Shown here: piece after piece, positions 6,384 to 63,546 of the stretch | Numbering within the stretch: the first letter of the stretch is position 1 | How the letters are laid out: every line of letters starts with the position of its first letter | Source of the DNA: Candidatus Aphodosoma sp. | GTDB lineage: Bacteria; Bacteroidota; Bacteroidia; Bacteroidales; Paludibacteraceae | Length of the DNA: 64,000 nucleotides | Direction of reading: 5' to 3' | NCBI GenBank assembly: GCA_045126975.1 | Contig: JBGVPL010000001.1 | Location: forward strand, 8,642 to 72,641 | Program-made: the position numbers and the translations under genes | The notes under the pieces: model-generated | Seen by the model: the letters and a program-made list of their open reading frames with translations, nothing else | Told to the model about the DNA's origin: nothing | Databases searched by the model: none

Positions 6384-6418
6384 AGATAAAAGACGAAGAT
6401 ACGAGATAAAAGATATAG
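6384..6418. repeat. Tandem heptamer array (AGATAAA/AGACGAA/GATACGA/GATAAAA/GATATAG)
   Basis: Five consecutive 7-nt units share GAYA and start 10 nt after the rpoC stop. Confidence 0.7.
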
Positions 6419-6461
6419 TTTAATGTCTGGTATTTAATATTTAAAATCTTTATAGTGATAA

Positions 6462-6499
6462 AATCCTCTTATTCGCTTGTCGAATAAGAGGATTTTTTT
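6462..6499 (+). terminator. Intrinsic terminator after rpoC
   Basis: Perfect 14-bp stem aatcctcttattcg/cgaataagaggatt, 5-nt loop, then T5. Confidence 0.85.
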
Positions 6500-6579
6500 G
6501 TATCTTTGCATTCGCGAATGGGTTATACTTCAACATAACTTAAATAAATTTTGTTCTGTTTCGGTTACCCCATTTTTAC

Positions 6580-6606
6580 ATTACTAATTACTCATTACTA
6601 ATTAAT
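6580..6606. repeat. Tandem heptamer array ATTACTA/ATTACTC x4 abutting the mscS-like start codon
   Basis: The units attacta attactc attacta attaata run directly into the ATG at 6607. Confidence 0.7.
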
Positions 6607-7797
6607 ATGAATACAACTATTTTACATTGGTTATCAGATTGGGGAGTGCCAGTTATGGCACATGAATGGCTCTATTGGCTAATTACACTTGTATGTGTAG
6701 GTTTTATTGTTTATCTTGTTGATTTAATTTGTCGTCGATTGGTGATACCTGCTATACGAAAAGTAACACGTAAAACCAATTTTGAGTGGGATGATATTGT
6801 GTTGAATGATGCGATGCTCAAGGATATGTCGCGTTTGGTGCCTCCTATTATGTTGGCTGTTTTGTTGCCTATGATATTTGTTGAGGGAAGCGAGACATTG
6901 GATTTTGTTTTGCGTGTCAATTATATCTATCTTGTTGTTGTTGTATCTAAGTTGGTGTGCACTTTTCTTGCTTCGTTATATGATTTGTCGCAACATAATG
7001 AGCGTTTGAAAAATCACTCGTTACAAAGTGTTTATCAAATGCTTAAGGTGTTGATAATTTGTGTGGCATTGATTATTGTGGTTAGTATTCTTATCAATAA
7101 AAATCCAGGTTATATTCTCACTGCACTTGGTGCTTCGGCTGCTGTATTGATGTTGGTATTCAAAGATATGATTGTGGGTTTAGTTGCAGGAGTGCAGTTG
7201 TCGGTCAACGATATGCTTCGTCCTGGCGATTGGATTGCTATGCCTAAATATGGTGCAGATGGCGATGTTATCGAGGTAAGTCTTACTACTGTGAAGGTGC
7301 AAAATTGGGATAAAACTATCACAACAATCCCTCCATACGCTCTTGTTAGCGATTCATTCCAAAATTGGAGAGGTATGCAAGAGAGTGGTGGTCGTCGTGT
7401 GAAGCGTGCGGTTTATATCGATATGCGTTCAATACAATTTTGTACCGAAGAGCAGATGGAAGATTTTGAAGTGAAAGGTTGGCTCGAAGGCATAGAACGT
7501 GTCGATGGTTTCCCTGTTAATTTGCATATTTTCCGTAACTATTTGGAAAAATATCTTCGTAATCATCCGCGTGTTAATCAAGGTATGACTATTATGGTGC
7601 GTCAATTGCAACCAACAGCACAAGGTCTTCCACTCGAATTATATTTCTTCTCAGATGGTACTGCATGGATTCCTTACGAGCAACTTCAAGCTGAAGTATT
7701 TGAGCATGTTTTTGCAATGTTACCAACCTTTGGTCTCCGCATCTTCCAATCTCCTATGGGTATTGATTTCACGGGTGAATCATTAAATGTAAATTAA
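6607..7797 (+). CDS. Mechanosensitive ion channel (MscS family) protein
   Basis: N-terminal TM helices followed by an MscS beta-domain signature (LSVNDMLRPGDWIAMPKYGADGDVIEVSLTTVKVQNWDKTITTIPPYALVSDSFQNW). Confidence 0.85.
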   Translation: MNTTILHWLSDWGVPVMAHEWLYWLITLVCVGFIVYLVDLICRRLVIPAIRKVTRKTNFEWDDIVLNDAMLKDMSRLVPPIMLAVLLPMIFVEGSETLDFVLRVNYIYLVVVVSKLVCTFLASLYDLSQHNERLKNHSLQSVYQMLKVLIICVALIIVVSILINKNPGYILTALGASAAVLMLVFKDMIVGLVAGVQLSVNDMLRPGDWIAMPKYGADGDVIEVSLTTVKVQNWDKTITTIPPYALVSDSFQNWRGMQESGGRRVKRAVYIDMRSIQFCTEEQMEDFEVKGWLEGIERVDGFPVNLHIFRNYLEKYLRNHPRVNQGMTIMVRQLQPTAQGLPLELYFFSDGTAWIPYEQLQAEVFEHVFAMLPTFGLRIFQSPMGIDFTGESLNVN

Positions 7798-7862
7798 TTA
7801 GTTAAAAGTTGTTTTATTCAATTTATTTATATAACTTTGTGGTGTAATAAAACGAATTGATT

Positions 7863-8426: not shown

Positions 8427-8427
8427 A

Positions 8428-8462
8428 TAAGGAACAAGGAATAAGGAATAGGGAACAAGGCT
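8428..8462. repeat. Tandem heptamer array TAAGGAA/CAAGGAA/TAGGGAA
   Basis: Five 7-nt units start 2 nt after the nfeD-like stop. Confidence 0.8.
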
Positions 8463-8463
8463 G

Positions 8464-8507
8464 CTCTCATATTCCTCCCCTGTTTTAGGGAGGTGTCCGA
8501 ATGCTCG
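8464..8507 (+). repeat. GGGGAGG hairpin element, copy 1
   Basis: Sequence ctctcatattcctcccctgttttagggaggtgtccgaatgctcg. It contains the CCTCCCCT-GTTT-TAGGGAGG inverted repeat and is near-identical to copies at 8541, 40268 and (reverse) 16160. Confidence 0.85.
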
Positions 8508-8540
8508 TGAAAAAGCTGAAGCAGTAGGCGAAACTTTCTT

Positions 8541-8587
8541 ATATTCCTCCCCTGTTTTAGGGGAGGTGCCCAACGGGCGGAGGGGTT
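8541..8587 (+). repeat. GGGGAGG hairpin element, copy 2
   Basis: Sequence atattcctcccctgttttaggggaggtgcccaacgggcggaggggtt. An 8-bp perfect hairpin is followed by a G-rich tail and fused to a TTCAACT array. Confidence 0.9.
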
Positions 8588-8657
8588 TTCAACTTTCAAC
8601 TTTCAACTTTCAACTTTCAACTTTCAACTTTCAACTCTTAACTCTAAACTCTATAAT
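8588..8657 (+). repeat. Tandem heptamer array, TTCAACT x7 then CTTAACT/CTAAACT/CTATAAT
   Basis: Strict 7-nt period. The array ends 1 nt before the flotillin ATG (8659). Confidence 0.95.
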
Positions 8658-8658
8658 T

Positions 8659-10008: not shown

Positions 10009-10012
10009 AATA

Positions 10013-10044: not shown

Positions 10045-10061
10045 CATCGAATTTAAGATAT

Positions 10062-10084: not shown

Positions 10085-10104
10085 GTTCGTAGTATTAAGT
10101 GATT

Positions 10105-11822: not shown

Positions 11823-11835
11823 TTCAAAGCATAGT

Positions 11836-11884
11836 GCATAATGCATAATTCACAATTCATAATTTTCAATTCTCAATTCTCAAT
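11836..11884. repeat. Tandem heptamer array GCATAAT/TCACAAT/TCATAAT/TTTCAAT/TCTCAAT
   Basis: Seven phase-locked 7-nt units in the nusA-infB spacer. Confidence 0.85.
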
Positions 11885-11894
11885 TTAAAAATAT

Positions 11895-14840
11895 ATGGCA
11901 AGATTAGGAAAATTAGTAAAAACATTAAAGATTGGTATTGGTACTGCAACAGATTTTTTGAAATCAAAAGGTTTTACTGTAGAAGAGGATTTTAATTCTA
12001 AACTTACAGGCGAACAAGAGGCTTTACTTTTGAAGGAATTTGCTACGCCTGAAATGTTGGCTGAATTTGAAGCTCAAAAGAAAGAGTCTAAAAAGCCAAA
12101 AGTAGAAGAACCTAAAAAAGAGGCGAAGAAACCTGAGGTTAAGAAGGCAGAACCAGCAACACCACAAATTAACGTTGTGGGTAAAATAGATTTAGCTACT
12201 GTAGGTAAACCTAAAGCGGTAGAGAAAAAAGAGGAACCAAAAGTAGAACCAAAGAAAGAGGAACCTAAAAAAGAGGTTGCTCCTACTCAACCTGCGCCTA
12301 AAAAAGAGGAGAAAAAGGTTGAACCAAAACCTAAAAAAGAAGAAAAGCAAAAAGAATCAAAACCAGTCGAAAAAGAAAATCTTGCCAAAGAAAATAAAAC
12401 TGAAATAAAAGAGACACGAGACACAAGACACGAGACACAAGATAAAAAAGCAGAAGAACCTGTGGCTGAAAAGAAAGAGGAAGAAATCTTCACTTTCCGC
12501 AAAGTTGAGTTCAAGAGCGATATTAAGGTTCTTGATAAAATCGACCTTTCTGCAATAAATAGCAATACTCGTCCTGCTAAAAAATCGAAAGAGGAGTTGC
12601 GTAAAGACCGTATTGCAAAAGAACGTCAAGCAGCTGAAGCTCGTCGTAAAGCTCAAAAAGAGGCTAATAAAAAAGCACAAAAAGAGGGTAAATCAGATGA
12701 AGTATTCAGCGTAGATAAACCAAAATTGCAAGGTCCTAATGTGGTTGATAAAATCAATCTTGAAGGACAAGGCAAAGGTGGTGAAAAAGGCGACAAGAAA
12801 AAACGTAAACGTATTGGTGGCGAACGCGTTGATGTGAGCAAAGCTATGCAAGGTGGTGGTCAAAACCAAGGCGGCGGACAAAAAGAGGGTAAGAAAAAGA
12901 ATAAAAATCAAAAAACTATTCATACACCTCAAGTTAGCGAAGAAGATGTTGCACGTCAAGTAAAAGAGACTTTGGCTCGTCTTACTGAAGGTAACAAAGG
13001 TGTGAAAAAAGGTGCTAAGTATCGTAAAGAGAAACGTGAGGCCAATGCTCAACGCTTGCAAAATGAGCAAGAAATGGAACAACTCGAATCAAAAATTCTT
13101 AAATTGACCGAGTTTGTTACTGCTAACGAGTTGGCTGCGATGATGAATGTGCCTGTAACTCAAATTATTCAAACTTGCTTCAACCTCGGTTTGTTTGTTT
13201 CTATCAATCAACGTCTCGATGCTGAAACTATCAATATCGTAGCTGATGAGTTTGGTTTCCAAACTGAATTCGTTTCTGCTGATGTGGTAAATGCTATTCA
13301 AGAAGAGGAAGATAGTGAAGAAGACCTCCTCCCACGTCCACCGATTGTAACAGTGATGGGTCACGTTGACCATGGTAAAACTTCGTTGCTCGACTATATT
13401 CGTAAATCTAATGTTATTGCAGGTGAAGCTGGTGGTATCACTCAACATATTGGTGCTTACAACGTAACACTCGAAGATGGTCGTCATATCACATTCCTCG
13501 ATACTCCTGGTCACGAGGCGTTTACAGCGATGCGTGCACGTGGTGCTCAAGTTACCGATATTGCGATTATTATTGTTGCAGCCGACGACAATGTCATGCC
13601 ACAAACAGTTGAAGCTATCAACCACGCATCAGCAGCAGGTGTACCTATCGTATTTGCTATCAACAAAGTAGATAAACCAAGTGCTAATCCTGATAAGATT
13701 AAAGAGTCGCTTGCTGCGATGAATTATCTTGTAGAAGAGTGGGGTGGTAAATATCAATCACAAGACATTTCGGCTAAACACGGTATGGGTGTCAACGAGT
13801 TGCTTGAAAAAGTATTGCTCGAAGCTGAATTGCTTGACCTTAAAGCAAATCCTAACCGTAAAGCATCGGGTTCGGTTATCGAATCTTCACTTGACAAAGG
13901 ACGTGGTTATGTGGCAACTGTGCTCGTAAACAATGGTACTTTGCGCGTGGGTGATATTATGCTTGCTGGTACTGCATACGGTCGTGTGAAAGCGATGTTC
14001 AACGAACGTAACCAACGTATTAAAGAGGCTGGCCCTGCTGAACCAGTTATCGTATTGGGTCTTAATGGTGCGCCTCAAGCTGGTGATAACTTCAATATCT
14101 TCGACCAAGACCACGAAGCTCGTGATATTGCTAACAAACGTGAACAATTAGCTCGTGAACAAGGACTTCGTACTTCTAAACACCTTACTCTCGAAGAGAT
14201 TGGTCGTCGTATTGCTCTTGGCAACTTCCAAGAACTCAATCTTATCGTTAAAGGTGACGTGGATGGTTCTATTGAGGCATTGTCAGACTCGTTGTTGAAA
14301 CTCTCTACAGAAGAAATTCAAGTTAACGTAATCCATAAGGCTGTAGGTCAAATCTCTGAAAGCGACGTTATGTTGGCTACTGCGTCTAATGCGATTATCG
14401 TAGGTTTCCAAGTGCGTCCTTCTATGGAAGCTCGTAAATTGGCTGAAAAAGAAGAAGTTGATATTCGTCTTTACTCAATTATTTACGACGCAATCGAAGA
14501 GCTTAAATCTGCAATGGAAGGTATGTTGGCTCCAGATATTAAAGAAGAAATCACTGCTACACTCGAAATCCGTGAGACATTTAAAATTACAAAAGTGGGT
14601 ACAATTGCCGGATGTATGGTTAAAGAAGGTAAAATCAAACGTGGCAATAAAGTACGTCTCATTCGCGATGGTATCGTGATTTATACAGGCGAACTTGCAT
14701 CTCTCAAACGTATGAAAGATGATGTGAAAGAGGTAAATTCAGGTTACGAATGTGGTCTTAATATCGCTAACTACAACGACATCCGCATCGGTGATATCAT
14801 CGAAGCATTTGAAGAAGTAGAAGTTAAAAAGACACTTTAA
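11895..14840 (+). CDS. infB: Translation initiation factor IF-2 (981 aa)
   Basis: Lys/Glu/Pro-rich N-terminus, G domain ([28 protein letters not shown]), and C-terminal IF-2 domains. Confidence 0.98.
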
Positions 14841-14943
14841 TTAGACAAAAGATAATAGACACGAGATATAAGGCATATTTGTCTTGTGTCTCGTGTCTTT
14901 TGTATAATTTTCAACTCTCAACTCTTAACTCTTAACTCTTAAC
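14841..14943 (+). repeat. Intergenic spacer made entirely of 7-nt units: TAGACA-type array, its inverted complement (terminator-like hairpin), then a TCAACTC/TTAACTC array
   Basis: Fifteen consecutive heptamers run in one register from the base after the infB stop to the cvpA ATG. agacacgag (14857-14865) pairs with ctcgtgtct (14890-14898). Confidence 0.85.
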
Positions 14944-15489
14944 ATGAACTATTTAGATATAATATTAATTATACCACTTGCTTATGGTCTTGTGCAGGGA
15001 TTGCGCAAAGGTTTGATAAAAGAGATAGCAGGTTTGCTTGCTATTATTTTAGGTATATATTTAGCACGTTATTTTTCGTTGCCAGTTTCGCAAGCATTGA
15101 CTGAAATGACAGGTTGGGCATCGAATATTTGTACACCTTTAGCGTATGCTTTAGTGTTTATTGTTGTTTCGTTGTCGATTTCGGCATTGTCTTATATGAT
15201 TGGTAAGATTATAGGAGCTATAATGTTAGGTTGGCTTAATCGCTTGTTTGGAGCTTTGTTTGGTGTTGTGAAAATAACATTGTTGTTGAGTGTAATACTT
15301 AATTTCGTGGCAATAGTGAATCAGTATATGCCTATCAAAGAAAAGTCTATAGTGCAAGAATCGTTGTTGTATTCTCCTATTGAGAATGTAATGGGAACAG
15401 TGTTACCCTTATTGAATTTTGAGGATTTTACAACCGCAGTTCGTGAAGGTGTAGTAGAACCCGCAACAAAAGTAATAGAGGAATTATAA
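14944..15489 (+). CDS. cvpA: CvpA family membrane protein
   Basis: Typical CvpA N-terminus (MNYLDIILIIPLAYGLVQGLRKGLIKEIAGLLAIILGIYLA) and four TM segments. Confidence 0.85.
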   Translation: MNYLDIILIIPLAYGLVQGLRKGLIKEIAGLLAIILGIYLARYFSLPVSQALTEMTGWASNICTPLAYALVFIVVSLSISALSYMIGKIIGAIMLGWLNRLFGALFGVVKITLLLSVILNFVAIVNQYMPIKEKSIVQESLLYSPIENVMGTVLPLLNFEDFTTAVREGVVEPATKVIEEL

Positions 15490-15607: not shown

Positions 15608-15650
15608 TATAATAGGGAACAAGGAATAGGGAACAAGGAATAGGGAGATT
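15608..15650. repeat. Tandem heptamer array GGGAACA/AGGAATA in the SDR leader
   Basis: Units tataata gggaaca aggaata gggaaca aggaata gggagat. Confidence 0.85.
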
Positions 15651-15708
15651 CTATATTTTTTTTGACTTTTGTCTCGTGTCTTTTGTTTAATGTTTAAATT
15701 TTGAGTAT

Positions 15709-16578
15709 ATGAAAAGAGCTGTTATTATAGGTGCTACGTCGGGTTTGGGGCGTGAGATTGCGATGAATCTTGTGCGTGAGGGTTGGATGGTTGGTGTGGC
15801 TGGTCGTAGGGTGGAATTGTTGGAGGATTTGCAAAGTGTAATGCAGAGAGAGCAAAATATAATTCCTTCTGCTTTGCTTGCGGATGCTCGAGCCGAGCGT
15901 ACCTACAAACAGGGGGACAATATTGAGTCGTTGCGGGTAGAAATAGAGCGGATTGATGTTACGGCAGAGGATGCTGTGGAGGGAGTTGAAAGGTTGGTTA
16001 AGAAGTTGGGTGGTATGGATTTGTTTGTGAATGTGGCGGGCGTTGGTTTTCAAAATCCTACGTTGGACCCTGTGGTTGAGAAGCGTACGTTCGATGTGAA
16101 TGGGTATGGCTTTATGCGTATGGTGGATTGGGCGTATAATTATTTTAAAGCAACGAAACAACCCCTTAGTCCTACGGACAGCTCCCCTAAAACAGGGGAG
16201 CAATATGAGAGAGAGGGGCAGATTGCTATTGTGTCGTCGATTGCGGGTACTAAGCCATTGGGTACGGCGGTGGCTTATTCGGCTACGAAGCGTATGCAGT
16301 CGCATTATTTGACGGGGTTGGCGCAGTTGGCTCGTATGGAGGGGTTGAAGATTAGGTTTACTGATATTCGTCCCGGGTTTGCGGCTACGGATATTTTGAA
16401 TCCTAATAAGCATTATCCGATGATGATGTCGAAAGAGTATGCTGGGCGATTGGCTACGCAGGCGATATTGAAGAAGAAGCGTGTGGCGGTAATTGATTGG
16501 AAGTTTGCGGTGTTGACATTCTTTTGGTCGTTGATTCCGAGATGTGTGTGGGAGAGATTGACTTTTGTGAAGAATTGA
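15709..16578 (+). CDS. SDR family oxidoreductase (289 aa, carries repeat-derived inserts)
   Basis: TGxxxGxG motif (GATSGLGREIA), NVAGVG, and catalytic YSATK. Confidence 0.85.
   Translation: MKRAVIIGATSGLGREIAMNLVREGWMVGVAGRRVELLEDLQSVMQREQNIIPSALLADARAERTYKQGDNIESLRVEIERIDVTAEDAVEGVERLVKKLGGMDLFVNVAGVGFQNPTLDPVVEKRTFDVNGYGFMRMVDWAYNYFKATKQPLSPTDSSPKTGEQYEREGQIAIVSSIAGTKPLGTAVAYSATKRMQSHYLTGLAQLARMEGLKIRFTDIRPGFAATDILNPNKHYPMMMSKEYAGRLATQAILKKKRVAVIDWKFAVLTFFWSLIPRCVWERLTFVKN
16160..16214 (-). repeat. GGGGAGG hairpin element, copy 4, inverted and in frame inside the SDR CDS
   Basis: The reverse complement ctctctcatattgctcccctgttttaggggagctgtccgtaggactaaggggtt aligns over ~50 nt with copies at 8464 and 40268. 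It is translated as PLSPTDSSPKTGEQYERE. Confidence 0.85.
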
Positions 16579-19027: not shown

Positions 19028-19137
19028 AATTCATAATTCACAATTCATAATGCATAATTAGCCATTCGGAGTTAATTTTGAACTATGAATTGTACATTAT
19101 GAATAAATTATGAATTATGCATTATGAATTATGAATT
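19028..19137. repeat. Composite palindromic element: AATTCAT/AATTCAC array, CCATTCGG core hairpin, then an inverted ATGAATT/ATGCATT array
   Basis: Left array 19028-19062, core gccattcggagttaatttt, right array about 19085-19137. The second permease ATG (19124) is the first base of an ATGAATT unit. Confidence 0.85.
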
Positions 19138-20371
19138 AATAAATGAGATTTGGCAGACGATTACGCGCAACAAGAGTCGTAGTTTGTTGACGGCTTTTGG
19201 GGTGTTTTGGGGTGTGTTTATGTTGGTGGTGATGGTGGCACTTGGCAGTGGTATCAGTCGAGGCATTATGGGACAGCTCGATGGTGTGGCACAGAATACA
19301 TCGATGATGTTTCCAAGTAATACGTCTATGCCGTATAAAGGATTCAAAAAAGGACGCACGTGGAATATGCATTCCGACGATTTAGTGGCAATGGAGCGCG
19401 AGTTCCCAGAATTGAAATATATCTCGCCTGTGATGTGGGTAAATAATGTAGGTAAAACAGCAAGAGGTACGAAGTCGGAGGAGTATAGTATGATGGGGTA
19501 CGATGCTAACTATTTCAAGATGTATCCGTTGAAAATGGTGCAAGGGCGTTGGATTAACGACATAGACCTTCGCGATACTCGAAAAGTGTGTGTCATAGGC
19601 GAAAAGGTGTTGAATGACCTCTATAAACCAGGCGAAAAAGCTGTGGGCACATTGTTGAGAGTAGGTAGTTCGTACTATACCGTGATTGGCGTAGTAAAAA
19701 AAGTTTCTGATGGTGTCAATTTCTTTGGAAATATGGATGAGATGTTGTTGGTGCCATATACAACAGCTCAAAGAATTCAAAATAGTGGTGATAAGATTGA
19801 TTGCCTATGTATTACGGCGTATGACAATGTGGAAATTGGGGATGTAGAAAAGCGCGTGGCGGCATTCGTTAAAGAGCGCAATTTAGTGAATCCCGATGAT
19901 GAAGCTGCATTGGAGTTGATAAATCTAAAAAAAATATTTGATTCGTTCTCGATGTTGTTTGGTGGGTTGAATTTTCTTGTGTGGATTGTAGGATTGGGTA
20001 CATTGTTGTCGGGTGTGATTGGGGTAAGTAATATTATGCTTGTTACGGTGCGTGAACGTACACAAGAGATAGGTATTCGTCGTGCATTAGGAGCTACACC
20101 GTTCACGATATTGAAACAGATAATGAGTGAGAGTGTGGTACTTACGGCAATAGCTGGGTTGGCTGGTTTGGTGTTTGCAGTGCTGGTATTGAGTGTGGTT
20201 GATATGGTTATGGCAATGCAACCTAATCCGGTTTTGCCATCAATTCAGTTGTCTTTCTCGTTGTCGATAGTAGCATTGGTGGTCATCATACTTGCTGGCA
20301 TGTTTGCTGGGTATTTGCCATCTAAACGAGCTCTTAGCATCAAAGCTGTCGAAGCTCTTCAAGATGAATAA
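19124..20371 (+). CDS. ABC transporter permease (MacB-like periplasmic domain + FtsX), paralog of 17777..19027
   Basis: Colinear with the preceding permease (ERTQEIGIRRALGAT). Confidence 0.9.
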   Translation: MNYELINEIWQTITRNKSRSLLTAFGVFWGVFMLVVMVALGSGISRGIMGQLDGVAQNTSMMFPSNTSMPYKGFKKGRTWNMHSDDLVAMEREFPELKYISPVMWVNNVGKTARGTKSEEYSMMGYDANYFKMYPLKMVQGRWINDIDLRDTRKVCVIGEKVLNDLYKPGEKAVGTLLRVGSSYYTVIGVVKKVSDGVNFFGNMDEMLLVPYTTAQRIQNSGDKIDCLCITAYDNVEIGDVEKRVAAFVKERNLVNPDDEAALELINLKKIFDSFSMLFGGLNFLVWIVGLGTLLSGVIGVSNIMLVTVRERTQEIGIRRALGATPFTILKQIMSESVVLTAIAGLAGLVFAVLVLSVVDMVMAMQPNPVLPSIQLSFSLSIVALVVIILAGMFAGYLPSKRALSIKAVEALQDE

Positions 20372-20480: not shown

Positions 20481-21575
20481 ATGAAAAAAGTAATTAGAAT
20501 TTTTGTGTTTGTCCTTTTGGGGCTTGTAGTGATTGGTACGTTTGTGTATCTATATAAAAAATCGCGTCCTGAGGTGAAGGAATATCAAATTGTTACACCG
20601 GTGGTGCAGACATTGTCGAAGAAAACCATTGCTACGGGTAAGATTGAGCCACGTAATGAGGTGGAAATTAAGCCACAAATTTCGGGTATTATTAGCGAGA
20701 TATATAAGGAGGCAGGCGAAATGGTGCGTGAGGGCGATGTGATTGCTCTTATCAAAGTTATTCCTGAAATGAGTAGTCTTAACTCTGCTGAAAGTCGTGT
20801 GAATATTGCCAAGATTGATTTTGAGCAGGCAAAAACAGACTATGACCGTGCCGATAAATTGTTTGAGAAGAAGGTACTTTCGGCTGAAGAGTTTGAGAAA
20901 GAACGTGTTGCATATAATAAAGCAAAAGAGGAGTATCAGAATGCAGTTGATAATCTTGAAATCATCCGTGATGGTATTGCCAAGAGTTCAGGTGGTTATA
21001 GCAATACTCAAATTCGTGCTACTATTACGGGTTTGATTCTTGATATTCCCGTAAAAGTGGGTAACTCGGTGATTCAGAGTAATAATTTCAACGATGGTAC
21101 AACTATTTGTACTATTGCCGATATGAACGATATGATTTTCAAAGGTTCTATCGATGAGAGTGAGGTGGGGCGTATTCGTGAGGGATTACCTATCGTGCTC
21201 ACAATCGGTGCGTTGCAAGATATGAAATTCGATGCAGTGCTCGAATATGTATCGCCAAAGGGTGTTGAGGAGAGCGGTGCTGTGATGTTTGAAATCAAGG
21301 CGGCAGCATCGATTCCTGATACAGTGATGGTGCGTGCAGGCTATAGTGCCAATGCCGAGATTATCTTGATGCAACGCAAGAATGTGCTTGCTATACCTGA
21401 GGGTGTAGTAGAGATGGTGGGTGATTCGGCATTTGTATATCAATTAGATACTACAGTTGTTAATGAGCAGAAATTCAATCGTGTGCCTGTAGTGTTGGGT
21501 GTGTCGGATGGACTTAATATTGAACTTGTTGAGGGTGTAGAGCCTGATGCGCAACTTAGAGGAAACCTTAAATAA
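20481..21575 (+). CDS. Efflux transporter periplasmic adaptor subunit (MacA/HlyD family)
   Basis: Signal-anchor, lipoyl, coiled-coil and beta-barrel layout (TGKIEPRNEVEIKPQISGII...; ...IRATITGLILDIPVKVGNSV). Confidence 0.9.
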   Translation: MKKVIRIFVFVLLGLVVIGTFVYLYKKSRPEVKEYQIVTPVVQTLSKKTIATGKIEPRNEVEIKPQISGIISEIYKEAGEMVREGDVIALIKVIPEMSSLNSAESRVNIAKIDFEQAKTDYDRADKLFEKKVLSAEEFEKERVAYNKAKEEYQNAVDNLEIIRDGIAKSSGGYSNTQIRATITGLILDIPVKVGNSVIQSNNFNDGTTICTIADMNDMIFKGSIDESEVGRIREGLPIVLTIGALQDMKFDAVLEYVSPKGVEESGAVMFEIKAAASIPDTVMVRAGYSANAEIILMQRKNVLAIPEGVVEMVGDSAFVYQLDTTVVNEQKFNRVPVVLGVSDGLNIELVEGVEPDAQLRGNLK

Positions 21576-21628
21576 GGAATAGGGAATATGGAGTAGGAAA
21601 TAAGGATTTTGTTATTGTGTATTTTAAT

Positions 21629-22945
21629 ATGAAAAAAATATTAATAATTTCATTGTGCATTGTGAATTATGTATTGTGCATTGCACAGGGTTGGACTTTG
21701 GACTCGTGTATATCGTATGCTCAACAGCAGAGTTATAGCGTGATACGTGCAAATATGGCAGTTAAGAATGCCGAAATTGCTGAGCGTAGTGCGCGTGTGG
21801 CAATGACGCCATCGGTGAATGCAGGTATTGGCGAGAATCTCTCTTTTGGTTTGGTTGAGGGGGCGAACAATGTACGCGAAAATCGCACTCAATCTACTAC
21901 AAGTTTCAATGCATCAGTTTCTATGCCATTGTTTACTGGTTTGCGTATAACTAATCAAATTAAACGTACGGGAGTTGAATTGCAAGTAGCTCTTGCTGAT
22001 GTAGAGAGTGCGAAGGAGAATATTGAACTTAATGTGATGACTTATTACCTTCAAATGATGTATTCGCGTGAGATGATTGCTGTGCAAGAGAGTCAGTTGG
22101 CTTTGTCTGAACAACTCTTAGAGCGTACACGAGTGTTGGTTGATGAGGGGTGTCAGTCGGAGAGTGAACTTTATGAAATAGAGGCGCAAGTGGCTCAAAA
22201 TCGTCAGCAACTCACTGATGCTAAAAATAGTTATCGTTTAGCAGTAGTGGATTTGTGTCAGTTGATAAATTATAAAGATGTAGAGGGATTTTATAATGCA
22301 CAATTCACAATTAACAATTCACAATTTGAGATGCAAAATATTGCGTCTCTACTCCCAACACCTGATGTTGTTTATTCTCATGCAGTGGCAAATCGACCAT
22401 CTATCGAAGCTCAACAACGTCGTATTGAGAGTGCTGAATTGGCAGTGAAAGAGACTAAGGCAGAGTATTATCCTCAACTCAACCTTAATGCCTCTTGGGG
22501 TACAGGCTATTATCATACGTTTAATGGTAATAATCCTGCATTTGGTAATCAGTTTGTTGATAATGGTAGTGAGGTGATAGGTTTGTCGTTGAATATTCCA
22601 ATTTATAATCGTATGCAAGTGCGTCATGCTGTGAAGCGTCAGCAGATAGCAGTAGAGGAGGCAAAACTTTCTGAGTTAGAGATGAAAGACCGCTTGTATA
22701 AAGACATACAGTCGGCATATTACAACGCCATTGCAGCACAAGAAAAACACACTGCAGCGCAAAAAAGTCGCGAGTCAGCTGCCAAAGCCCTTGAGTTTGC
22801 AACTAATAAATATGAACTTGGTCGCCTTAGTACATACGAATATAGTGAAGCGCAAACACGTCTTCAACAGGCTCAAGCTCAAGAGACACAAGCGAAATAT
22901 GAATACTTGCTCCGTGCACGTATTTTAGAGTTTTATATGGAATAA
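21629..22945 (+). CDS. TolC family outer membrane efflux protein
   Basis: Signal peptide MKKILIISLCIVNYVLCIAQG, two TolC repeats, and it is the last gene of the ABC-MFP operon. The ATG at 21629 is preferred over the GTG at 21617. Confidence 0.9.
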   Translation: MKKILIISLCIVNYVLCIAQGWTLDSCISYAQQQSYSVIRANMAVKNAEIAERSARVAMTPSVNAGIGENLSFGLVEGANNVRENRTQSTTSFNASVSMPLFTGLRITNQIKRTGVELQVALADVESAKENIELNVMTYYLQMMYSREMIAVQESQLALSEQLLERTRVLVDEGCQSESELYEIEAQVAQNRQQLTDAKNSYRLAVVDLCQLINYKDVEGFYNAQFTINNSQFEMQNIASLLPTPDVVYSHAVANRPSIEAQQRRIESAELAVKETKAEYYPQLNLNASWGTGYYHTFNGNNPAFGNQFVDNGSEVIGLSLNIPIYNRMQVRHAVKRQQIAVEEAKLSELEMKDRLYKDIQSAYYNAIAAQEKHTAAQKSRESAAKALEFATNKYELGRLSTYEYSEAQTRLQQAQAQETQAKYEYLLRARILEFYME

Positions 22946-36504: not shown

Positions 36505-36599
36505 GGAATAAGGTCGAGATTTTGCATTGCAAAAGCGAGACCATTAGATCAAGAGTAAATTATGTTTTTATGTCATTCTGTCTAAAAAAATATGAAAAT

Positions 36600-40216: not shown

Positions 40217-40371
40217 GGAATAGGGAACAAGGAATAAGGAATAAGGAGCAGGGAACAAGGTCGTCCGATATTCCTCCCCTGTTTTAGGGGAGGTGCCCGT
40301 AGGGCGGAGGGGTTTTCAACTTTCAACTAAAAAAACGGTGGGTCTCGCTACTCGTTACTTGCTACTAAATA
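40214..40371 (+). repeat. Composite repeat block: TAAGGAA-type array (starts on the aguB stop), GGGGAGG hairpin element copy 3 (40268-40316), TTCAACT x2, then a CTCGCTA/CTTGCTA array
   Basis: Same module order as the block at 8428-8657. Element copy 3 is atattcctcccctgttttaggggaggtgcccgtagggcggaggggtt. Confidence 0.9.
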
Positions 40372-42799: not shown

Positions 42800-42923
42800 G
42801 ATAATGTAGAAAATAGTAGGGACGCTCGGTTCGAGCTTCCGTTAATGAATAATATTTAATAAACGAAGGGAAGTTGAGTATTGTATTCTTGCTACTCGCT
42901 ACTCGCTACTAAAAATCTAAACA

Positions 42924-47009: not shown

Positions 47010-47224
47010 TCTTTTTGGACGACTATTATTCTGCTACAGCATGAGATGGTTGAGGTTGTGTTTAATGCCGCGAGGTTTCCTAAACTCTCAACTCTCAACT
47101 CTCAACTGAGAATATGTTTAGTATCTAAATCATTTAGACTCAATGCTCCGTCATTGACTACTTGAATGATTGCTTAAACAAAAAAAAGTAAAAAGAAAGT
47201 AAACTATTAAAAAAACAAACAATT

Positions 47225-48025: not shown

Positions 48026-48232
48026 TATTTCTTTAGAGTAGAAAGTCGTAAGTCGTTGGTCGTAAGACTTTAGATGCTACGAATTGTTCAATGCCGAAAG
48101 GTCTTGCTACTTATATCTTGCTACTTGCTACTAATAATATAAAGCGTTATAGATTCTCAGCTCCAAGCCGTGATTCTCTAACGCTTTTTATAAAATTGAA
48201 CTAATTTATAAACTCTTAAATACTTTACTACT

Positions 48233-55428: not shown

Positions 55429-55885
55429 ATTTTTAGACTTATAGTAGCGAGTTTTTTTGAATGCATAATGCATAATGCACAATTATATTGGCTTCGCTTG
55501 TTAATATTTTATTTTGAATATGCCATAATGTCTTGAGTTCTGTGGTTTGTTTTTGATGTTTATTGTGACAATATGGCACTATTTGTCTATTTTCGAGACT
55601 TTAGAGGTTCGTTTTAGCCTCCACTATATATTATACAATCGGTGTGCCAAAAGTAGAGAATGAGGAGTTAGGAATGAGGAGTTAGAAATTAGTATTTTGG
55701 AATTAGGAGTAAGGGAGATTTTTTGAAGAGAGATGTGTTGTTTTTTCTTTTTTTTTTTACTATCTTTGTGGTGATTTTTGGGTTGTGATGTCTTGAGAAC
55801 TGTGTTTTAGTATTTAATTTGTTGGTTTTTAGTTGGTTGTATATTGTTTTTATGAGGTTCTATAAAGAGTTGTGTCGTTGGAAAT

Positions 55886-59367: not shown

Positions 59368-59573
59368 ATTTTAGCATTTTAGTAACGAGTAGCGAGTAGC
59401 GAGACTTTTGATACTCGGCTTCGCCTCGTTATTTTTTATAGATTTTAGTAGCGAGAAGTGAGACATACTCGCTTTGTTCGTTTTATTTTTTTTGAACGTA
59501 AATTCTCGCTAATTATCCATAAATTAAGAATAAGTTTTTGATTAATTTATGGTAATTTGTGTTTGAAAGAAAG

Positions 59574-60506
<933 letters not shown>

Positions 60507-60561
60507 ATTTCGAATAATTTGAAATTTGAAATTTGAAATTTGAAAGTTGTTTGTGTTGTAT

Positions 60562-60592
60562 TTTGTAGTGTGAATTTTTTTTTGTACTTTTG
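60562..60592 (+). promoter_or_regulatory. Promoter of pdxJ
   Basis: TTTG (60562-60565), 19 nt, TACTTTTG (60585-60592). Confidence 0.55.
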
Positions 60593-60654
60593 TGGTCAAT
60601 TTGAGAAGACCCATTAAGCGCAAAGTTACAAATAAAATTTGATATATAAAAACT

Positions 60655-61368
60655 ATGACACAACTAAGTGTAAACGTAAATAAAATAGCAACGATACGTA
60701 ATGCTCGAGGAGGTAATAATCCAGATGTATTGAAGGTAGCGTTGGATTGTGAGAAGTTTGGTGCTCAGGGAATTACGGTGCATCCACGACCAGATGAACG
60801 TCATATTACAGGACAAGATGTTTTGGATTTAAAGCCTGCCTTGACAACAGAATTTAATATAGAGGGTAACCCAGATGAGAGGTTTATTGACTTGGTTAGC
60901 AGAGTGAAACCAGCACAGGTTACGTTGGTGCCAGATGCTCCAGGAGTGTTGACTTCGAATGCAGGATGGGATTGTATTGCGAATTTTGAGCATTTGAAAG
61001 GGCTTGTTGATTTGTTTAAGGCGCAAGGTATCAGAGTTTCGATATTCGTTGGTACTGATATAGAAAATATTAAGGCTGCGGCTCGTACGGGGGCAGATAG
61101 AATAGAACTTTATACTGAGCCATACGCAGCGCAATATCATCAAGACAGAGAGGCGGCAGTGGCTCCATACGTGCATGCGGCAGTTGCGGCTCACGAATTG
61201 GGCTTGGGTATCAATGCGGGTCATGACTTGGATTTGCATAACTTGGCTTATTTTCATGAGTGTGTACCATTCCTCGATGAAGTTTCGATTGGTCATGCGT
61301 TGATTTGCGATGCGCTTTATCTTGGTTTGGAAGAGACGATAAAGAGGTATTTGGAGTGCTTGAAATAG
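60655..61368 (+). CDS. pdxJ: Pyridoxine 5'-phosphate synthase
   Basis: [17 protein letters not shown]..., [16 protein letters not shown]; full-length PdxJ. Confidence 0.96.
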
Positions 61369-61407
61369 ATTACAGATTATAGATAACAGATTACAGATAA
61401 TAGATTT
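61366..61407 (+). repeat. Tandem heptamer array TAGATTA/CAGATTA/TAGATAA x6 that begins on the pdxJ stop codon
   Basis: Units tagatta cagatta tagataa cagatta cagataa tagattt. The 7-nt register continues to the exbB ATG at 61431. Confidence 0.9.
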
Positions 61408-61430
61408 TAAATTTTCAACTTTATAAAATT

Positions 61431-62147
61431 ATGTTACTTTTACAAGAAACACAAATGGTAGCAACAATGGCTGCCGACACATTGAATGCTATGGCTCCAG
61501 TGGTTGAAGAGCCAGCAAAACTTAACTTTTTTGAGATGTGCCTCAAAGGCGGTTGGATTATGATTCCGCTTGCGTTGATGCTCATTTTTGCTATTTATAT
61601 TTTTATTGAACGTTTGATTGTTACGCGTCAGGCTTCGAAAGAGGACGCTACGTTTATGAATCGTATTAAAGATTATATTTATGATGGTAAACTTGATGCA
61701 GCATTGAAACTTTGTCGTGATACAAAATCGCCTTCGGCACGTATGATTGAAAAAGGTATCTCTCGTCTTGGTCGTCCGATGTCGGATGTGTTGGTGGCAA
61801 TCGAAAATGTTGGTAATATTGAAATTGCAAAACTTGAAAAAGGACTTTCGTTGTTGGCTACTATCTCGGGTGGAGCTCCGATGTTAGGTTTCTTGGGTAC
61901 TGTGATGGGTATGGTGCAAGCTTTCTTCGAAATGGAACAAGCTGGTGGTAACACAATCAACCTTAGTCAGTTGTCTGGTGGTATTTATACAGCAATGGTT
62001 ACTACAGTAGCAGGTCTTATTGTGGGTGTATGTGCTTATTTTGCATATAATTATCTTGTAGGTCGCGTGAACGAAGTGATGCGTCGTCTTGAAATGCGTA
62101 GCATGGAATTCCTCGATTTGCTAAATGAACCAGCAGCAGTTAAATAA
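61431..62147 (+). CDS. exbB: MotA/TolQ/ExbB proton-channel family protein
   Basis: Three TM segments and a conserved C-terminal core (LATISGGAPMLGFLGTVMGMVQAF). Confidence 0.9.
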   Translation: MLLLQETQMVATMAADTLNAMAPVVEEPAKLNFFEMCLKGGWIMIPLALMLIFAIYIFIERLIVTRQASKEDATFMNRIKDYIYDGKLDAALKLCRDTKSPSARMIEKGISRLGRPMSDVLVAIENVGNIEIAKLEKGLSLLATISGGAPMLGFLGTVMGMVQAFFEMEQAGGNTINLSQLSGGIYTAMVTTVAGLIVGVCAYFAYNYLVGRVNEVMRRLEMRSMEFLDLLNEPAAVK

Positions 62148-62245
62148 TTCATAATTCACAATTCATAATTCATAATTAACCATTCGGTGTTAATTTTATG
62201 ATTATGAACTAAAAATTATGAATTATGCATTATGCATTATGAATT
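62146..62245. repeat. Composite palindromic element, second copy: AATTCAT/AATTCAC array, ACCATTCGG core hairpin, inverted ATGAATT/ATGCATT array
   Basis: Left array 62146-62180 overlaps the exbB stop. Core attaaccattcggtgttaatttt. Right array 62197-62245. Same architecture as 19028-19137. Confidence 0.9.
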
Positions 62246-62254
62246 GAAAAAGTT

Positions 62255-62668
62255 ATGGCTTTAAAGAAATCAAACAAAATAGATGCTTCATTTTCGATGT
62301 CGTCGATGACTGACATTATATTCTTGTTGTTGTTATTCTTTATGATAGCATCGACAATGTCGGCTCCAAACGATATGAAAGTGAATTTGCCTCAATCGTC
62401 GGCAAAGACCGCAACAAAGGCAAATATTGTGAAAATAGGTATCACTGCAGAGGGCGAATATAGTATTGCAGATAATGGTTCAGAACCACGTGCTGTGCAT
62501 TTTGAAGAAATTGAACCATATCTTCAAACAGTGTATGTGGCAGATTCTACTACATACGTGGCATTGCATGCAGATGAATTGGTGCCTTATCGTGAAATTG
62601 TGAAAATACTTGATATAGCTAACGAAAATCGCCTTAAATTGGTGATAGCTACAAAAGTTAAGGAATAA
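62255..62668 (+). CDS. exbD: Biopolymer transporter ExbD/TolR
   Basis: MSSMTDIIFLLLLFFMI TM segment plus the ExbD periplasmic domain. TAATG overlap with the next gene. Confidence 0.9.
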   Translation: MALKKSNKIDASFSMSSMTDIIFLLLLFFMIASTMSAPNDMKVNLPQSSAKTATKANIVKIGITAEGEYSIADNGSEPRAVHFEEIEPYLQTVYVADSTTYVALHADELVPYREIVKILDIANENRLKLVIATKVKE

Positions 62669-63489
62669 TGCAATTAAAGAAATCAGAAATACAATCGGCT
62701 ATTGCCACTACTATAATCTGTATCATCATCTTGTTGATATTGATATTCTGCGGAATGACAGCACACAAGAATGAGATGGATGAGGGGGTAATGGTGTCGT
62801 TGGGTTATGCAGAGGAGGGTTTTGGCGAGAGCATGCCTAATCCGACTCCAGCTCCAGAAGCTGCACCTGTGCCTACTCCAGCTCCTCAGCCTGCCGCTCC
62901 AGAGGTATCATCTCCATCGGAAGAAGATTTGATGACACAGGAAGACCCATCGGTGGCACTTGAGGCTGAGAAAAAACGTAAAGAGGCTGAAGAAGAGGCT
63001 CGTCGTCGTGCTGAAGAGGAGCGTATTGCTCGTGAGAAAGCAGAGCAAGAACGTATTGCTCGAGAAAAGGCAGAAGAAGAGGCTCGTATTAAAGCCGAAC
63101 AAGAGGCTAAGAAGAATCAAGCAAGCAATCTTGCAGGTTCGGCATTCCAAAATGTGGGTAAAGGTCAAGGTCAGACTAAAGGTGAAGCACAACAAGGTAA
63201 TCCTGCAGGTCAAGGTTCGCAAGGTGGTCACTCGTGGTCGCTTAATGGACGTGATTTGTTGAGTAAATTGGCTCAACCATCATATCAAGGTAATGAAGAG
63301 GGACGTATAGTGGTAGAAATACGTGTAGATGCTTCGGGTAATGTAATTTCTGCTGCTATCACTAAAGGCACTACAATTACTAATGAAACATTGCGTAATG
63401 CTGCAGTTACAGCAGCAAAGAAAAATAAATTCTCGACTGGTGGCGGTGTCGCAATTGGTACAATTACATATAATTTTAGATTAAATTAA
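62668..63489 (+). CDS. tonB: Energy transducer TonB-family protein
   Basis: N-terminal TM anchor, Pro-rich then Glu/Lys/Ala-rich spacer, and a C-terminal TonB domain (GRIVVEIRVDASGNVISAAITKGTTITNETLRNAAVTAAKKNKF). Confidence 0.85.
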   Translation: MQLKKSEIQSAIATTIICIIILLILIFCGMTAHKNEMDEGVMVSLGYAEEGFGESMPNPTPAPEAAPVPTPAPQPAAPEVSSPSEEDLMTQEDPSVALEAEKKRKEAEEEARRRAEEERIAREKAEQERIAREKAEEEARIKAEQEAKKNQASNLAGSAFQNVGKGQGQTKGEAQQGNPAGQGSQGGHSWSLNGRDLLSKLAQPSYQGNEEGRIVVEIRVDASGNVISAAITKGTTITNETLRNAAVTAAKKNKFSTGGGVAIGTITYNFRLN

Positions 63490-63546
63490 AAACGAGCGTA
63501 GCGAGTAAGTTTTATATCTTGCTATTCGCTACTAAAAATTTATATT

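Follow-up and report, generated by a model that had tools for sequence, protein, structure and literature searches.

Tandem arrays of heptanucleotide units mark many gene boundaries in a 64-kb stretch of DNA from Candidatus Aphodosoma sp. (contig JBGVPL010000001.1; the whole stretch is hereinafter designated the window), and strains of this organism differ in them by whole units. The arrays are best read, at a probability of roughly 55%, as slippage-driven heptanucleotide simple sequence repeats (SSRs) of the type called short tandemly repeated repetitive (STRR) sequences or long simple sequence repeats (LSSRs), seeded at gene boundaries, filtered by selection and occasionally copied between loci. 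The window has 39% GC, is 88% coding according to a simple open reading frame (ORF) caller, which supplied all gene calls used here, and is the part of the genome that was sampled. It is core chromosome of Candidatus Aphodosoma sp., a lineage of ruminant gut metagenome-assembled genomes (MAGs). Specifically, its NusA is 97–100% identical to that of yak, cattle, buffalo and roe-deer gut MAGs that bear the name Candidatus Aphodosoma sp. or 'Paludibacteraceae bacterium', and the genus is placed in Bacteroidales. An earlier note, made from the sequence alone, had named Bacteroidota as the host, and both observations bear this out.

The period of 7 nt is a property of the intergenic DNA. The lag-7 identity of the 7,426 intergenic nt is 0.360, compared with 0.296 ± 0.0056 in dinucleotide shuffles (z 11.4–12), and the harmonics at lag 14 (z 7.9) and lag 21 (z 5.6) also exceed the shuffles. 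Coding DNA shows period 3 as its sole periodic signal. The autocorrelation check proposed in the earlier note, run on intergenic and coding DNA (intergenic z 11.4), is therefore in line with its description. A strict array finder detects 23 arrays at period 7 and 0–1 at each other period from 5 to 12, and the density it gives is 7.3% of intergenic bases, compared with 0.58% of coding bases. Tandem Repeats Finder reports a period of 7, 14 or 21 in 52 of 103 rows, which collapse to ~32 arrays, and it places arrays at or near every coordinate listed in the earlier note. The lag-7 identity of those listed intervals is 0.43–1.00, compared with a background of 0.30. The 7-nt phase is kept as described, with 0% indels in most arrays.

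The arrays make up a smaller part of the spacers than had been claimed. The earlier note described the intergenic DNA as built almost entirely of arrays and placed arrays in nearly every spacer. Together, its intervals span 1,111 nt, or 15% of the 7,426 nt (7.3% with the strict detector), and only 15 of the 33 spacers longer than 40 nt contain an array. After removal of the arrays, the residual 6,263 intergenic nt (84%) have a lag-7 z of 3.2, no higher than the values at lag 5 (3.8) and lag 8 (4.0), indicating that the remaining 84% has no period-7-specific signal. Plain non-repeat hairpin terminators are located among the arrays at 6460–6496, 15501–15532 and 22970–22997.

The units form a continuum. 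A division into discrete families was dropped in favour of it, since single linkage with at most one mismatch, allowing rotation and reverse complement, reduces the proposed 'at least eight families' to six clusters, one of which unites TTTCAAC, TTAACTC, AATTCTC, AATTCAT, AATGCAC, CATTGTG and AATTTGA. The proposal that different families are joined in the same register is true within contiguous arrays and for some neighbours (14841 to 14911, 70 nt; 15608 to 15664, 56 nt), but other neighbours break the register (8428 to 8588, 160 nt; 40214 to 40344, 130 nt). Super-units 14 and 21 nt long repeat with 100% matches.

The orientation of the arrays tracks transcription, not the DNA strand. Orientation and composition were counted in the window pooled with eight sister species. 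In the 36 arrays that end no more than 40 nt before an ATG, G accounts for 5.8% of the sense strand, and typical units are TTTCAAC, TCAACTC, AATTCTC, GCTACTC, TTCAAAT, CTAAACT and TTTTTAA. In the 28 arrays that start no more than 40 nt past a stop codon, C accounts for 7.4%, and typical units are TAAGGAA, AATTTGA, TAATTAA, TGAGGAA and TAGTTAT. On both strands, leader arrays run in the sense direction of their gene and stop 1–14 nt short of the ATG; the arrays beside fmt, nadK and the LTD protein gene, which lie on the minus strand, are flipped to match. Many trailer arrays start between 5 nt before and 3 nt after the stop, so that the stop codon belongs to the first unit. Array-free leaders and trailers have the same skew in weaker form (G 10%, C 11%).

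The arrangement of stop codons differs between the two classes. Trailer arrays have sense-strand stops in 2–3 frames, whereas G-poor leader arrays of the TTTCAAC, AATTCTC, GCTACTC, AACTCTC and CTTGCTA types have sense stops in 0–1 frame and antisense stops in 2–3. Some other arrays ending near a start codon do contain sense stops. The start codon itself lies inside an array at 19124 (ATGAATT) and at lon, and the stop codon lies inside an array at asd and aguB.

Oppositely oriented arrays form hairpins, as had been proposed, with fold z of −3 to −9.2 relative to shuffles at five loci: 14838–14912 (dG −32.6, z −9.2), 19025–19140 (z −6.2), 62140–62255 (z −4.2), and 48020–48140 and 59370–59480 on the minus strand (z −3.0 each). 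The GAGACAC hairpin after infB is the first-listed of the terminator-like sites in 6000–23500 and has the longest stem among them (19 pairs); its inverted arrays (14841..14903) are invariant in 10 strains. Judged by its sequence, the segment 14857–14898 has the anatomy of an intrinsic terminator, namely a predicted stable hairpin of 19 pairs followed by TTTGT. The other inverted arrays fold well, and several have no clear T-run or overlap the next start. Direct arrays are unstructured, with fold z of 0 or above among leader arrays. Trailer and leader arrays do not pair with each other in every case, as 8424–8560, 11820–11896 and 36470–36572 fold no better than shuffles.

Comparison of strains defines how the arrays change. 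An exactly identical CvpA or ExbD protein is present in more than 80 blocks each of the public collection, and ten independent assemblies were compared for each. Spacers were extracted between anchors and aligned with MAFFT. Indel lengths taken from BLAST alignments scored with cheap gap penalties were discarded, as spurious 1–2-nt gaps swamped them. The genes of the compared strains are 95–100% identical to the window, with mosaic exceptions, and all strains carry arrays. Altogether, arrays are present in more than 20 independent assemblies (ENA k141 contigs, TONG22-1 scaffolds and one NCBI MAG) with copy-number differences of 7n nt, which answers the concern of an assembly artefact raised in the earlier note.

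Three modes of turnover are observed in these comparisons: gain or loss of whole units, spread of a variant unit without a break of phase, and differences in unit sequence between near-identical flanks. The TCAACTC array in the cvpA leader has 3, 4 or 5 units among strains, and the TAGGGAA/CAAGGAA array at 15608..15650 differs by −7, +14 and ~−28 nt. Steps of −7 nt in the pdxJ-exbB and exbB-exbD spacers distinguish L104 from L103, L107 from the window and L111 from L109. The TTTCAAC array before the flotillin gene has 7 units in the window, and L165 instead has three plus two. At 61369–61430, the window has ACAGATT/ATAGATA (AGATTAC-type) units, seven strains have GAGACAC-type units and two have AGGAATA. 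L103 has CGAGACA/CGAGATA units at this site, which share the AGA core with the window in the same register; from the aligned units, this looks like a concerted change in place. The exbB-exbD spacer (62148–62254) shows 7-nt strain differences or, instead, a GAGGTTA/AACTCTC hairpin allele, and at 63490–63546 L111 instead has a GTTGAAA/TCAACTC hairpin (fold z −3.1). The alternative alleles and sister-species spacers that were folded also form hairpins. The exbB and exbD genes that flank the differing spacers are 99.3–100% identical between strains. The spacer upstream of fmt is present as 206-nt and ~100-nt haplotypes.

The conspecific strains are themselves mosaic. In L103–L112 and L001–L010, most genes are 98–100% identical to the window, while single genes are 88–92% identical (fmt in L111, tonB in L104, pdxJ in L107 and the ABC ATPase gene in L007). 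Such identity levels indicate frequent homologous recombination with diverged lineages.

Between species, the units at one site change completely. In nine Aphodosoma species, with DNA 80–92% identical, the nusA-infB spacer contains different units, namely GCATAAT/AATTCTC in the window and TTAATAA with TTTTTAA, CTAAACT, or inverted AGTCAAC in other species; another species has a plain hairpin with degenerate TAACTAA units. In the more distant relatives L021–L023, L033, L037, L041, L080 and L081, this spacer is without an evident heptamer array. Array-rich loci are present in most Aphodosoma species and absent in a relative with 85% NusA identity, and the loci of Dysgonomonas, Proteiniphilum and Fermentimonas have 0–1 array each. 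Several other ruminant Bacteroidales MAGs with GC of 0.50–0.55 have unit types of their own, in up to 18 copies. In sister species L019 (1055–1510), a ~450-nt spacer consists wholly of (TGAGGAA)x33 followed by (TCTTAAC/TCTAAAC)x31 on the sense strand. A giant hairpin between these two arrays was rejected (fold z +0.44). Arrays of this length may be collapsed in short-read assemblies.

A scan of viral contigs, with hosts unassigned, found GAGACAC x3 in 3 contigs and TCAACTC x3 in 49. The array-richest viral contigs have GC of 0.49–0.69, and period-7 arrays predominate in them. Three IMG/VR contigs of ~50% GC (L128, L145 and L150) have 3–5 exact TCAACTC x3 matches and 6–7 period-7 arrays each, with the matches all on one strand in L150 and mostly on one strand in L128 and L145. 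These viral-contig arrays say nothing about mechanism.

Some modules have been copied between loci, and arrays have occasionally been written in frame into tolerant coding loops. Two composite elements are present in 2–4 copies each in the window, and most arrays belong to neither. Module A (8429–8653 and 40212–40328) consists of a TAAGGAA array, a 43-nt G-rich double hairpin (TTCCTCCCCTGTTTTAGGGGAGGTGCCCnnnGGGCGGAGGGGT; 8544–8586 and 40271–40313) and a TTTCAAC array, and its two copies are 95% identical over 61 nt. A partial copy of the double hairpin is located near 8470–8495, and degenerate copies of the module are located in the ORFs of nadK (60064–60100, minus strand) and the SDR gene (16179–16203). 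The 26-nt core of the G-rich element is exact in 13 metagenome contigs (L165–L177) with GC of 0.39–0.55, from several organisms and with unrelated flanks, and the element often lies beside similar hairpin elements (CGTCTCCCTAACACAGGGAGAC). No Rfam family corresponds to the double hairpin, and a match to MicA around element A (E 0.7) was rejected. It may be an element common to gut Bacteroidales that resembles repetitive extragenic palindromes (REPs) or miniature inverted-repeat transposable elements (MITEs).

Module B (19028 and 62146) consists of an AATTCAT array, a conserved core and an inverted ATGAATT array, and its copies are 94% identical over 52 nt (19028 region and 62146–62197). In the copy at 19028..19138, the right arm encodes both the start codon and the first residues (MNYEL) of the second MacB permease (19124), and strains differ in whether the core occurs in the ABC-permease spacer. 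Comparison of 17748–17830 in the window with L004 and L008 shows that, in some strains, another sequence takes the place of this spacer and of the initial codons of the first MacB permease, with a 165-nt insertion. The altered permease starts with MNYELIGE, specified by an ATGAATT array, and so resembles the tandem paralogue at 19124 (MNYELINE); the change looks like gene conversion between tandem paralogues, as far as the aligned sequences tell. No target-site duplications or fixed ends were seen, no target-site duplication is evident at element B, and no transposase is encoded within the 64-kb window.

Seven arrays, overlooked by the earlier note, lie in frame inside ORFs: in infB, the TolC-like protein (signal peptide and loop), the LamG domain, the LTD protein, agmatine deiminase and NAD kinase. 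The window, L005 and L009 carry the infB array; in the remaining seven strains of the species, as in every sister species, an unrelated ~50-nt K/E/P-coding segment takes its place. The net difference is 18 nt, and InfB is 981 aa long with the array and 987 aa without. Compared with NAD kinases in the Protein Data Bank (PDB), NadK has 18 extra residues exactly at the array, and AguA has an insertion of ~8 residues relative to PDB 1zbr, again exactly at the array. The nadK array is length-invariant in 11 strains, and sister species L024 has a different degenerate period-7 segment, 51 nt shorter, at this site. AguA is 345 aa long in all 5 strains compared; look-ups with PdxJ, the ABC ATPase and a 191-aa protein gave short contigs only and were used solely for this length constancy. 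The constant length of in-ORF arrays among strains is as expected if selection removes frameshifts.

The step sizes, the drift of units without loss of phase, the restriction to one period and the literature on heptanucleotide repeats together point to slippage-driven heptanucleotide SSRs. The earlier note saw no obvious mechanism for generating or maintaining the phase, and the steps of 7, 14 and 28 nt, the in-phase concerted change and the occasional copying between loci improve on that. Replication slippage would be the generator; a 7-nt loop is longer than the loops known to be recognised by E. coli mismatch repair. Arrays would be seeded from local sequence at gene boundaries, probably because a genome that is 88% coding offers hardly any other harmless sites for tandem duplication. 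They would then be filtered by the limits on composition and structure to which leaders, trailers and terminators are already subject. As 7 and 3 are coprime, an array containing a stop codon or an ATG offers it in all three frames and would end or start the protein at any copy number. Local seeding and tolerance would make each array mirror the composition of its site, C-poor with stops after genes and G-poor without sense stops before them. An array formed in one arm of a terminator hairpin could be copied to the other by selection for pairing or by template switching at quasi-palindromes, and the resulting inverted pairs would work as terminators or RNA-stabilising hairpins. Bacteroidota make little use of Shine-Dalgarno pairing, and direct G-poor arrays would give unstructured leaders that suit translation initiation in this phylum.

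Several observations go beyond what slippage alone would give. Near-identical composite modules with non-repetitive cores are located at separate loci (95% over 61 nt, 94% over 52 nt), the same unit types recur at many loci, and arrays lie within nadK, aguA, tolC and the LamG domain. In infB, a 32-nt GAGACAC array replaces ~50 nt of unrelated coding sequence, with flanks otherwise identical in the alignment. The step of 7 rather than 5, 6 or 8 is left unaccounted for. Because the strains are mosaic, with genes 88–100% identical, some 'replaced' spacers may be imports by homologous recombination, not spacers rebuilt in place.

The copied modules raise the question of whether the arrays are arms of non-autonomous foldback-, MITE- or REP-like mobile elements, moved in trans by a transposase encoded elsewhere. 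The heptamers would then be reiterated binding or cleavage sites, and whole cassettes would be inserted or exchanged at gene boundaries and occasionally in genes. Consistent with this, element B is 94% identical at two loci and its core is present or absent among strains, element A is found at two loci and in degenerate form within the SDR gene and nadK, the 13 metagenome contigs (GC 0.39–0.55) carry its 26-nt core unchanged, entire spacers differ between 99%-identical strains, and the infB array is a replacement allele. However, no target-site duplications, fixed ends or, within the window, transposase were seen, the length of the elements varies by single units, many arrays are direct only and have no inverted partner, and, where orthologous sites are compared, the in-phase drift of units resembles evolution in place. 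At 17748, the element-B polymorphism also brings the initial codons of the downstream gene into line with its tandem paralogue, a pattern closer to gene conversion than to transposition. We regard mobile elements as an unlikely source of the arrays, though still a serious rival to slippage. A quite improbable relative of this explanation is a dedicated activity that, instead of passive slippage, writes or exchanges heptamer cassettes at gene boundaries and in coding loops of several uncultured gut Bacteroidales lineages. Candidates for such an activity would be an enzyme resembling a nuclease or a transposase, a templated polymerase, and targeted gene conversion, and it may be linked to the widespread G-rich hairpin element.

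Two further explanations concern function. Arrays could be selected cis-regulatory platforms that offer multiple sites on mRNA or DNA to a trans-acting protein, such as S1, a cold-shock/KH protein or a CsrA-like GGA binder. Their orientation tracks transcription, they end 1–14 nt before the ATG or start at the stop, leader arrays are G-poor and unstructured (fold z 0 or above), GGA recurs every 7 nt in TAAGGAA and TGAGGAA arrays, and such a role was proposed for the similar anatomy of Beggiatoaceae TAACTGA repeats (MacGregor 2015, PMC4679880). Yet the unit sequence at one gene changes completely between strains and sister species, many unrelated units occupy like positions, the genes are unrelated housekeeping genes and no candidate binding protein was identified. 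Array-free leaders share the composition, and the arrays may simply conform to it. We give this explanation a low probability; a reading of the GGA-rich arrays as a CsrA sponge, considered without supporting evidence, is kept only as part of it. It is very unlikely that the arrays are contingency loci in which a change of copy number in leaders or in arrays with an ATG or stop switches or tunes the adjacent gene. Leader arrays are polymorphic in copy number among strains and some arrays contain a start (19124, lon) or a stop codon (asd, aguB), but the genes (nusA/infB, ribosomal protein genes, fmt, nadK, exbBD) are housekeeping genes rather than surface or restriction genes, the length of in-ORF arrays is constant, unlike in phase-variable contingency loci, where changes of copy number shift the frame or the promoter spacing of a surface or variable gene, and an ATG or stop in all three frames buffers a 7-nt change instead of switching. 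An origin in chance, low-complexity sequence or misassembly, for which the short-read MAG source and the AT-rich spacers might speak, has a probability close to nil, as the excess over dinucleotide shuffles (z 11–12) is specific to period 7 and the arrays recur in more than 20 independent assemblies.

Slippage-driven SSRs have precedents. STRR sequences, reportedly described by Mazel et al. in 1990 from heterocystous cyanobacteria, are short tandem heptanucleotide arrays with several unit types per genome at many, mostly intergenic loci. To our knowledge, they have no established function or generating mechanism. The window similarly has tandem heptanucleotide units in ~32 mostly intergenic arrays of at least 6 clusters, and the earlier note's term 'STRR-like' is apt as an analogy (heptanucleotide, several unit types, many dispersed loci, strongly intergenic). 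The arrays are not STRR proper, whose host is a heterocystous cyanobacterium, whereas the host here belongs to Bacteroidales. The canonical STRR units CCCCAGT, TTGGTCA and CAACAGT have no tandem copy on either strand of the window. Other differences are AT-rich units that grade into one another, a link of the arrays to stop and start codons, an orientation that tracks transcription, many inverted pairs and documented strain-level turnover.

REPs and bacterial interspersed mosaic elements (BIMEs), MITEs and Rickettsia palindromic elements are small palindromic intergenic elements after stop codons, with presence that varies between strains. Rickettsia palindromic elements can also be inserted in frame in protein-coding genes and translated. 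Some of the arrays share the palindromic intergenic location after stops, presence or absence between strains and, with the Rickettsia elements, translated in-frame copies. In contrast with REPs, BIMEs and MITEs, their arms are tandem heptamers of variable number, and within the window they show no fixed length or terminal motif, no duplicated target site and no cognate transposase.

LSSRs are repeats of prokaryotic genomes with units of 5–11 nt (Mrazek, Guo & Shah 2007, via PMC4679880; also PMC4692102). According to the summary of that work in PMC4679880, no long SSR class is commoner in prokaryotes than the heptanucleotides, and slippage has been put forward to explain them (Mrazek 2007). 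LSSRs so described resemble the arrays in that heptanucleotides dominate, the repeats are mainly intergenic, the lineages are phylogenetically scattered and slippage is proposed. In the window, arrays are beyond chance (z 11–12), heptanucleotides predominate and copy number changes by whole units (7, 14 and 28 nt). The top genomes in the PMC4679880 summary are Burkholderia, cyanobacteria, actinobacteria and Xanthomonas, with gut Bacteroidales not named there, and the summary describes no hairpin or composite architecture, both of which are present here.

Another precedent is the TAACTGA direct repeat, found in marine Beggiatoaceae, cyanobacteria and five Bacteroidetes genomes (MacGregor 2015, PMC4679880). 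The Bacteroidetes include Paludibacter propionicigenes, Flexibacter litoralis, Gramella forsetii and Aequorivita sublithincola, and the TAACTGA spacers of the last two also hold other heptamer direct repeats (PMC4679880). Like the leader arrays, these are forward-oriented heptamer direct repeats a few nt upstream of start codons. However, one unit dominates there, whereas the window has many units, stop-codon arrays, inverted pairs and in-ORF arrays. TAACTGA is present in the window as 7 single copies and 0 tandem copies. The earlier note knew of no equivalent in Bacteroidota; the TAACTGA and other heptamer repeats of Bacteroidetes (PMC4679880) limit this statement, which stands for a dense multi-family system in gut Bacteroidales or Aphodosoma. 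Specifically, our literature search on Aphodosoma and on heptamer repeats in Bacteroidales found no specific account of a dense multi-unit system. The arrays of the window are thus a new example of a repeat type known in cyanobacteria and other phyla, not a new kind of system.

Table 1. Heptamer arrays and composite elements of the window, with strand and position relative to genes
Feature	Position (strand)	Context
Degenerate GATAnnA array	6384..6418 (+)	After rpoC stop (6374); lag-7 identity 0.57, weakest of the arrays listed in the earlier note
ATTACTA x3.6, leader	6580..6604 (+)	Ends 3 nt upstream of MscS-like ATG (6607)
TAAGGAA/CAAGGAA/TAGGGAA x5, trailer	8428..8462 (+)	Starts 3 nt past stop at 8426; left module of composite element A
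G-rich double-hairpin core of composite element A, TTCCTCCCCTGTTTTAGGGGAGGTGCCCAACGGGCGGAGGGGT	8544..8586 (+)	Exact copies at 8544 and 40271
TTTCAAC x7, TCTTAAC, TCTAAAC, one phase	8587..8657 (+)	Ends 6 nt before flotillin ATG (8659); 100% matches over 7.1 copies (Tandem Repeats Finder)
Continuous in-phase array GCATAAT to TCACAAT to TCATAAT to TTTCAAT to TCTCAAT	11829..11885 (+)	Fills nusA-infB spacer; unstructured, fold z −0.21
GAGACAC x4.6, in frame in infB	12411..12442 (+)	Window, L005, L009
Inverted GAGACAC/GTGTCTC arrays, 19-bp hairpin then TTTGT	14841..14903 (+)	Directly 3' of infB
TCAACTC/TTAACTC x5, leader	14911..14945 (+)	Abuts cvpA ATG (14944)
TAGGGAA/CAAGGAA, 14-nt super-unit	15608..15650 (+)	Period 14, 100% matches
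GTCTCGT/GTCTTTT half-array, GAGACAC family	15664..15691 (+)	Upstream of SDR gene; 90% identical to 14878-14908
Element-A hairpin copy in SDR ORF, TTGCTCCCCTGTTTTAGGGGAGCTG	16179..16203 (-)	Translated SSPKTGEQ
Composite element B: AATTCAT x4, core TAATTAGCCATTCGGAGTTAATTTT, inverted ATGAATT x4	19028..19138 (+)	
TAAGGAA-family trailer	21571..21607 (+)	Overlaps HlyD-like stop (21575)
CATTGTG x4.7	21651..21683 (+)	Encodes part of TolC-like signal peptide SLCIVNYVLCIA
AATTCAC x4.6, in frame in TolC-like ORF	22295..22326 (+)	Translated AQFTINNSQF
AATGCAC x4.4, in frame	30539..30569 (+)	LamG domain of 3161-aa protein; MHNAQCTMHN
TCTCAAC x4 (gene sense strand), in frame	34807..34839 (-)	LTD / type IX secretion protein
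CAAGGAG/TAAGGAA x6	36474..36515 (+)	Encodes last asd codons and stop; stops in further frames; unstructured, z −1.3
GAGACAC x4.7, in frame	37925..37957 (+)	Agmatine deiminase (aguA)
Composite element A, second copy	40212..40371 (+)	TAAGGAA x7 over aguB stop, core 40271-40313, TTTCAAC x2 40314-40328, CTCGCTA x4 ending 9 nt before U32 peptidase ATG
CTTGCTA/CTCGCTA x4, leader	42888..42915 (+)	14 nt before ATG at 42924
CTCAACT x4	47080..47107 (+)	Upstream of rpsB; 100% matches
AAGTCGT and CTTGCTA arrays, imperfect hairpin	48043..48137 (+)	Between rpsB and tsf; fold z −3.0
ATGCATT-type array	55460..55487 (-)	Overlaps annotated start of lon (minus strand); ATG in rotating frames
GAATGAG GAGTTAG, period 14, x4	55658..55713 (+)	
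TAGCGAG/CTCGCTA inverted arrays, two hairpins	59378..59475 (-)	Sense CTCGCTA x3 14 nt upstream of fmt ATG
TCAACTC x4.7 and degenerate element-A core, in frame, GGVPKGGGGQTLNSQLSTLNS	60031..60100 (-)	nadK
TTCAAAT x4.9, leader	60516..60549 (-)	Ends 10 nt before true nadK ATG (60506)
AGATTAC/AGATAAC x6 into AAATTTT CAACTTT	61366..61422 (+)	pdxJ stop to 9 nt before exbB ATG; fold z +0.8, unstructured
Composite element B, second copy	62144..62245 (+)	Fills exbB-exbD spacer
TAGCGAG / CTTGCTA-TTCGCTA hairpin	63493..63538 (+)	Before ATG at 63547; fold z −2.1

The genes of the window are, in order, the end of rpoB, rpoC, an MscS-like channel gene, a flotillin gene, rimP-nusA-infB, cvpA, the SDR gene, a MacB-type ABC exporter with HlyD and TolC, the genes of the 3161-aa LamG protein and the LTD / type IX secretion protein, asd, aguA, aguB, a U32 peptidase gene, rpsF, rplI, tRNA-Arg, rplM-rpsI-rpsB-tsf, a BspA-type LRR protein gene, lon, fmt, nadK, pdxJ and exbB-exbD-tonB. 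An Rfam scan of the window gave nothing except tRNA at the gathering threshold.

The longest ORFs of nadK (59574–60623), flotillin (8566–10008) and lon (53032–55482) run through the leader arrays, and their start codons are probably wrong. The gene calls of public assemblies give NadK as 310, 341 or 346 aa.

Two other tandem repeats are present in the window. A 33-nt repeat (GGCGGATAATGTGAAAAATGAGGTGTTTTTAC; 3.5 copies, 55886–55999) in the long spacer between lon and an AAA_14/DUF4143 ATPase gene is unrelated to the heptamers, and an 11/22-nt repeat (TTATGGTATGTTTATCCTATAT; 2.5 copies, 23044–23106) is located upstream of the 3161-aa LamG gene. The region 7800–10012 has no BLAST match in L011, the nearest sister-species contig (NusA 100%, DNA ~91–92% identical). 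The matching segments that flank it are only ~18 nt apart in L011, from which the NfeD-like and flotillin genes are seemingly missing, and this region appears to be variable between species.

The origin and role of heptamer repeats of the STRR type are, as far as we know, unexplained. The lineage described here is sampled in many ruminant-gut metagenomes, with closely related strains and about eleven sister species. With so many strains and species, population data allow the gain and loss of arrays, the drift of units and the copying between loci to be followed directly, something difficult to achieve with the cyanobacterial examples. The main value of the arrays is thus a population-genomic handle on how heptamer repeats arise. 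They also demonstrate that heptamer arrays can be translated inside essential enzymes. A 7-nt array that bears a stop or start codon would tolerate its own instability, as 7 and 3 share no factor. For annotation, the arrays are a probable cause of wrong start-codon calls, as at nadK, flotillin and lon. If a dedicated activity did write them, improbable as that is, the arrays would be modular, rapidly rewritable terminators and translation leaders, and STRR-type repeats elsewhere might arise in the same way.

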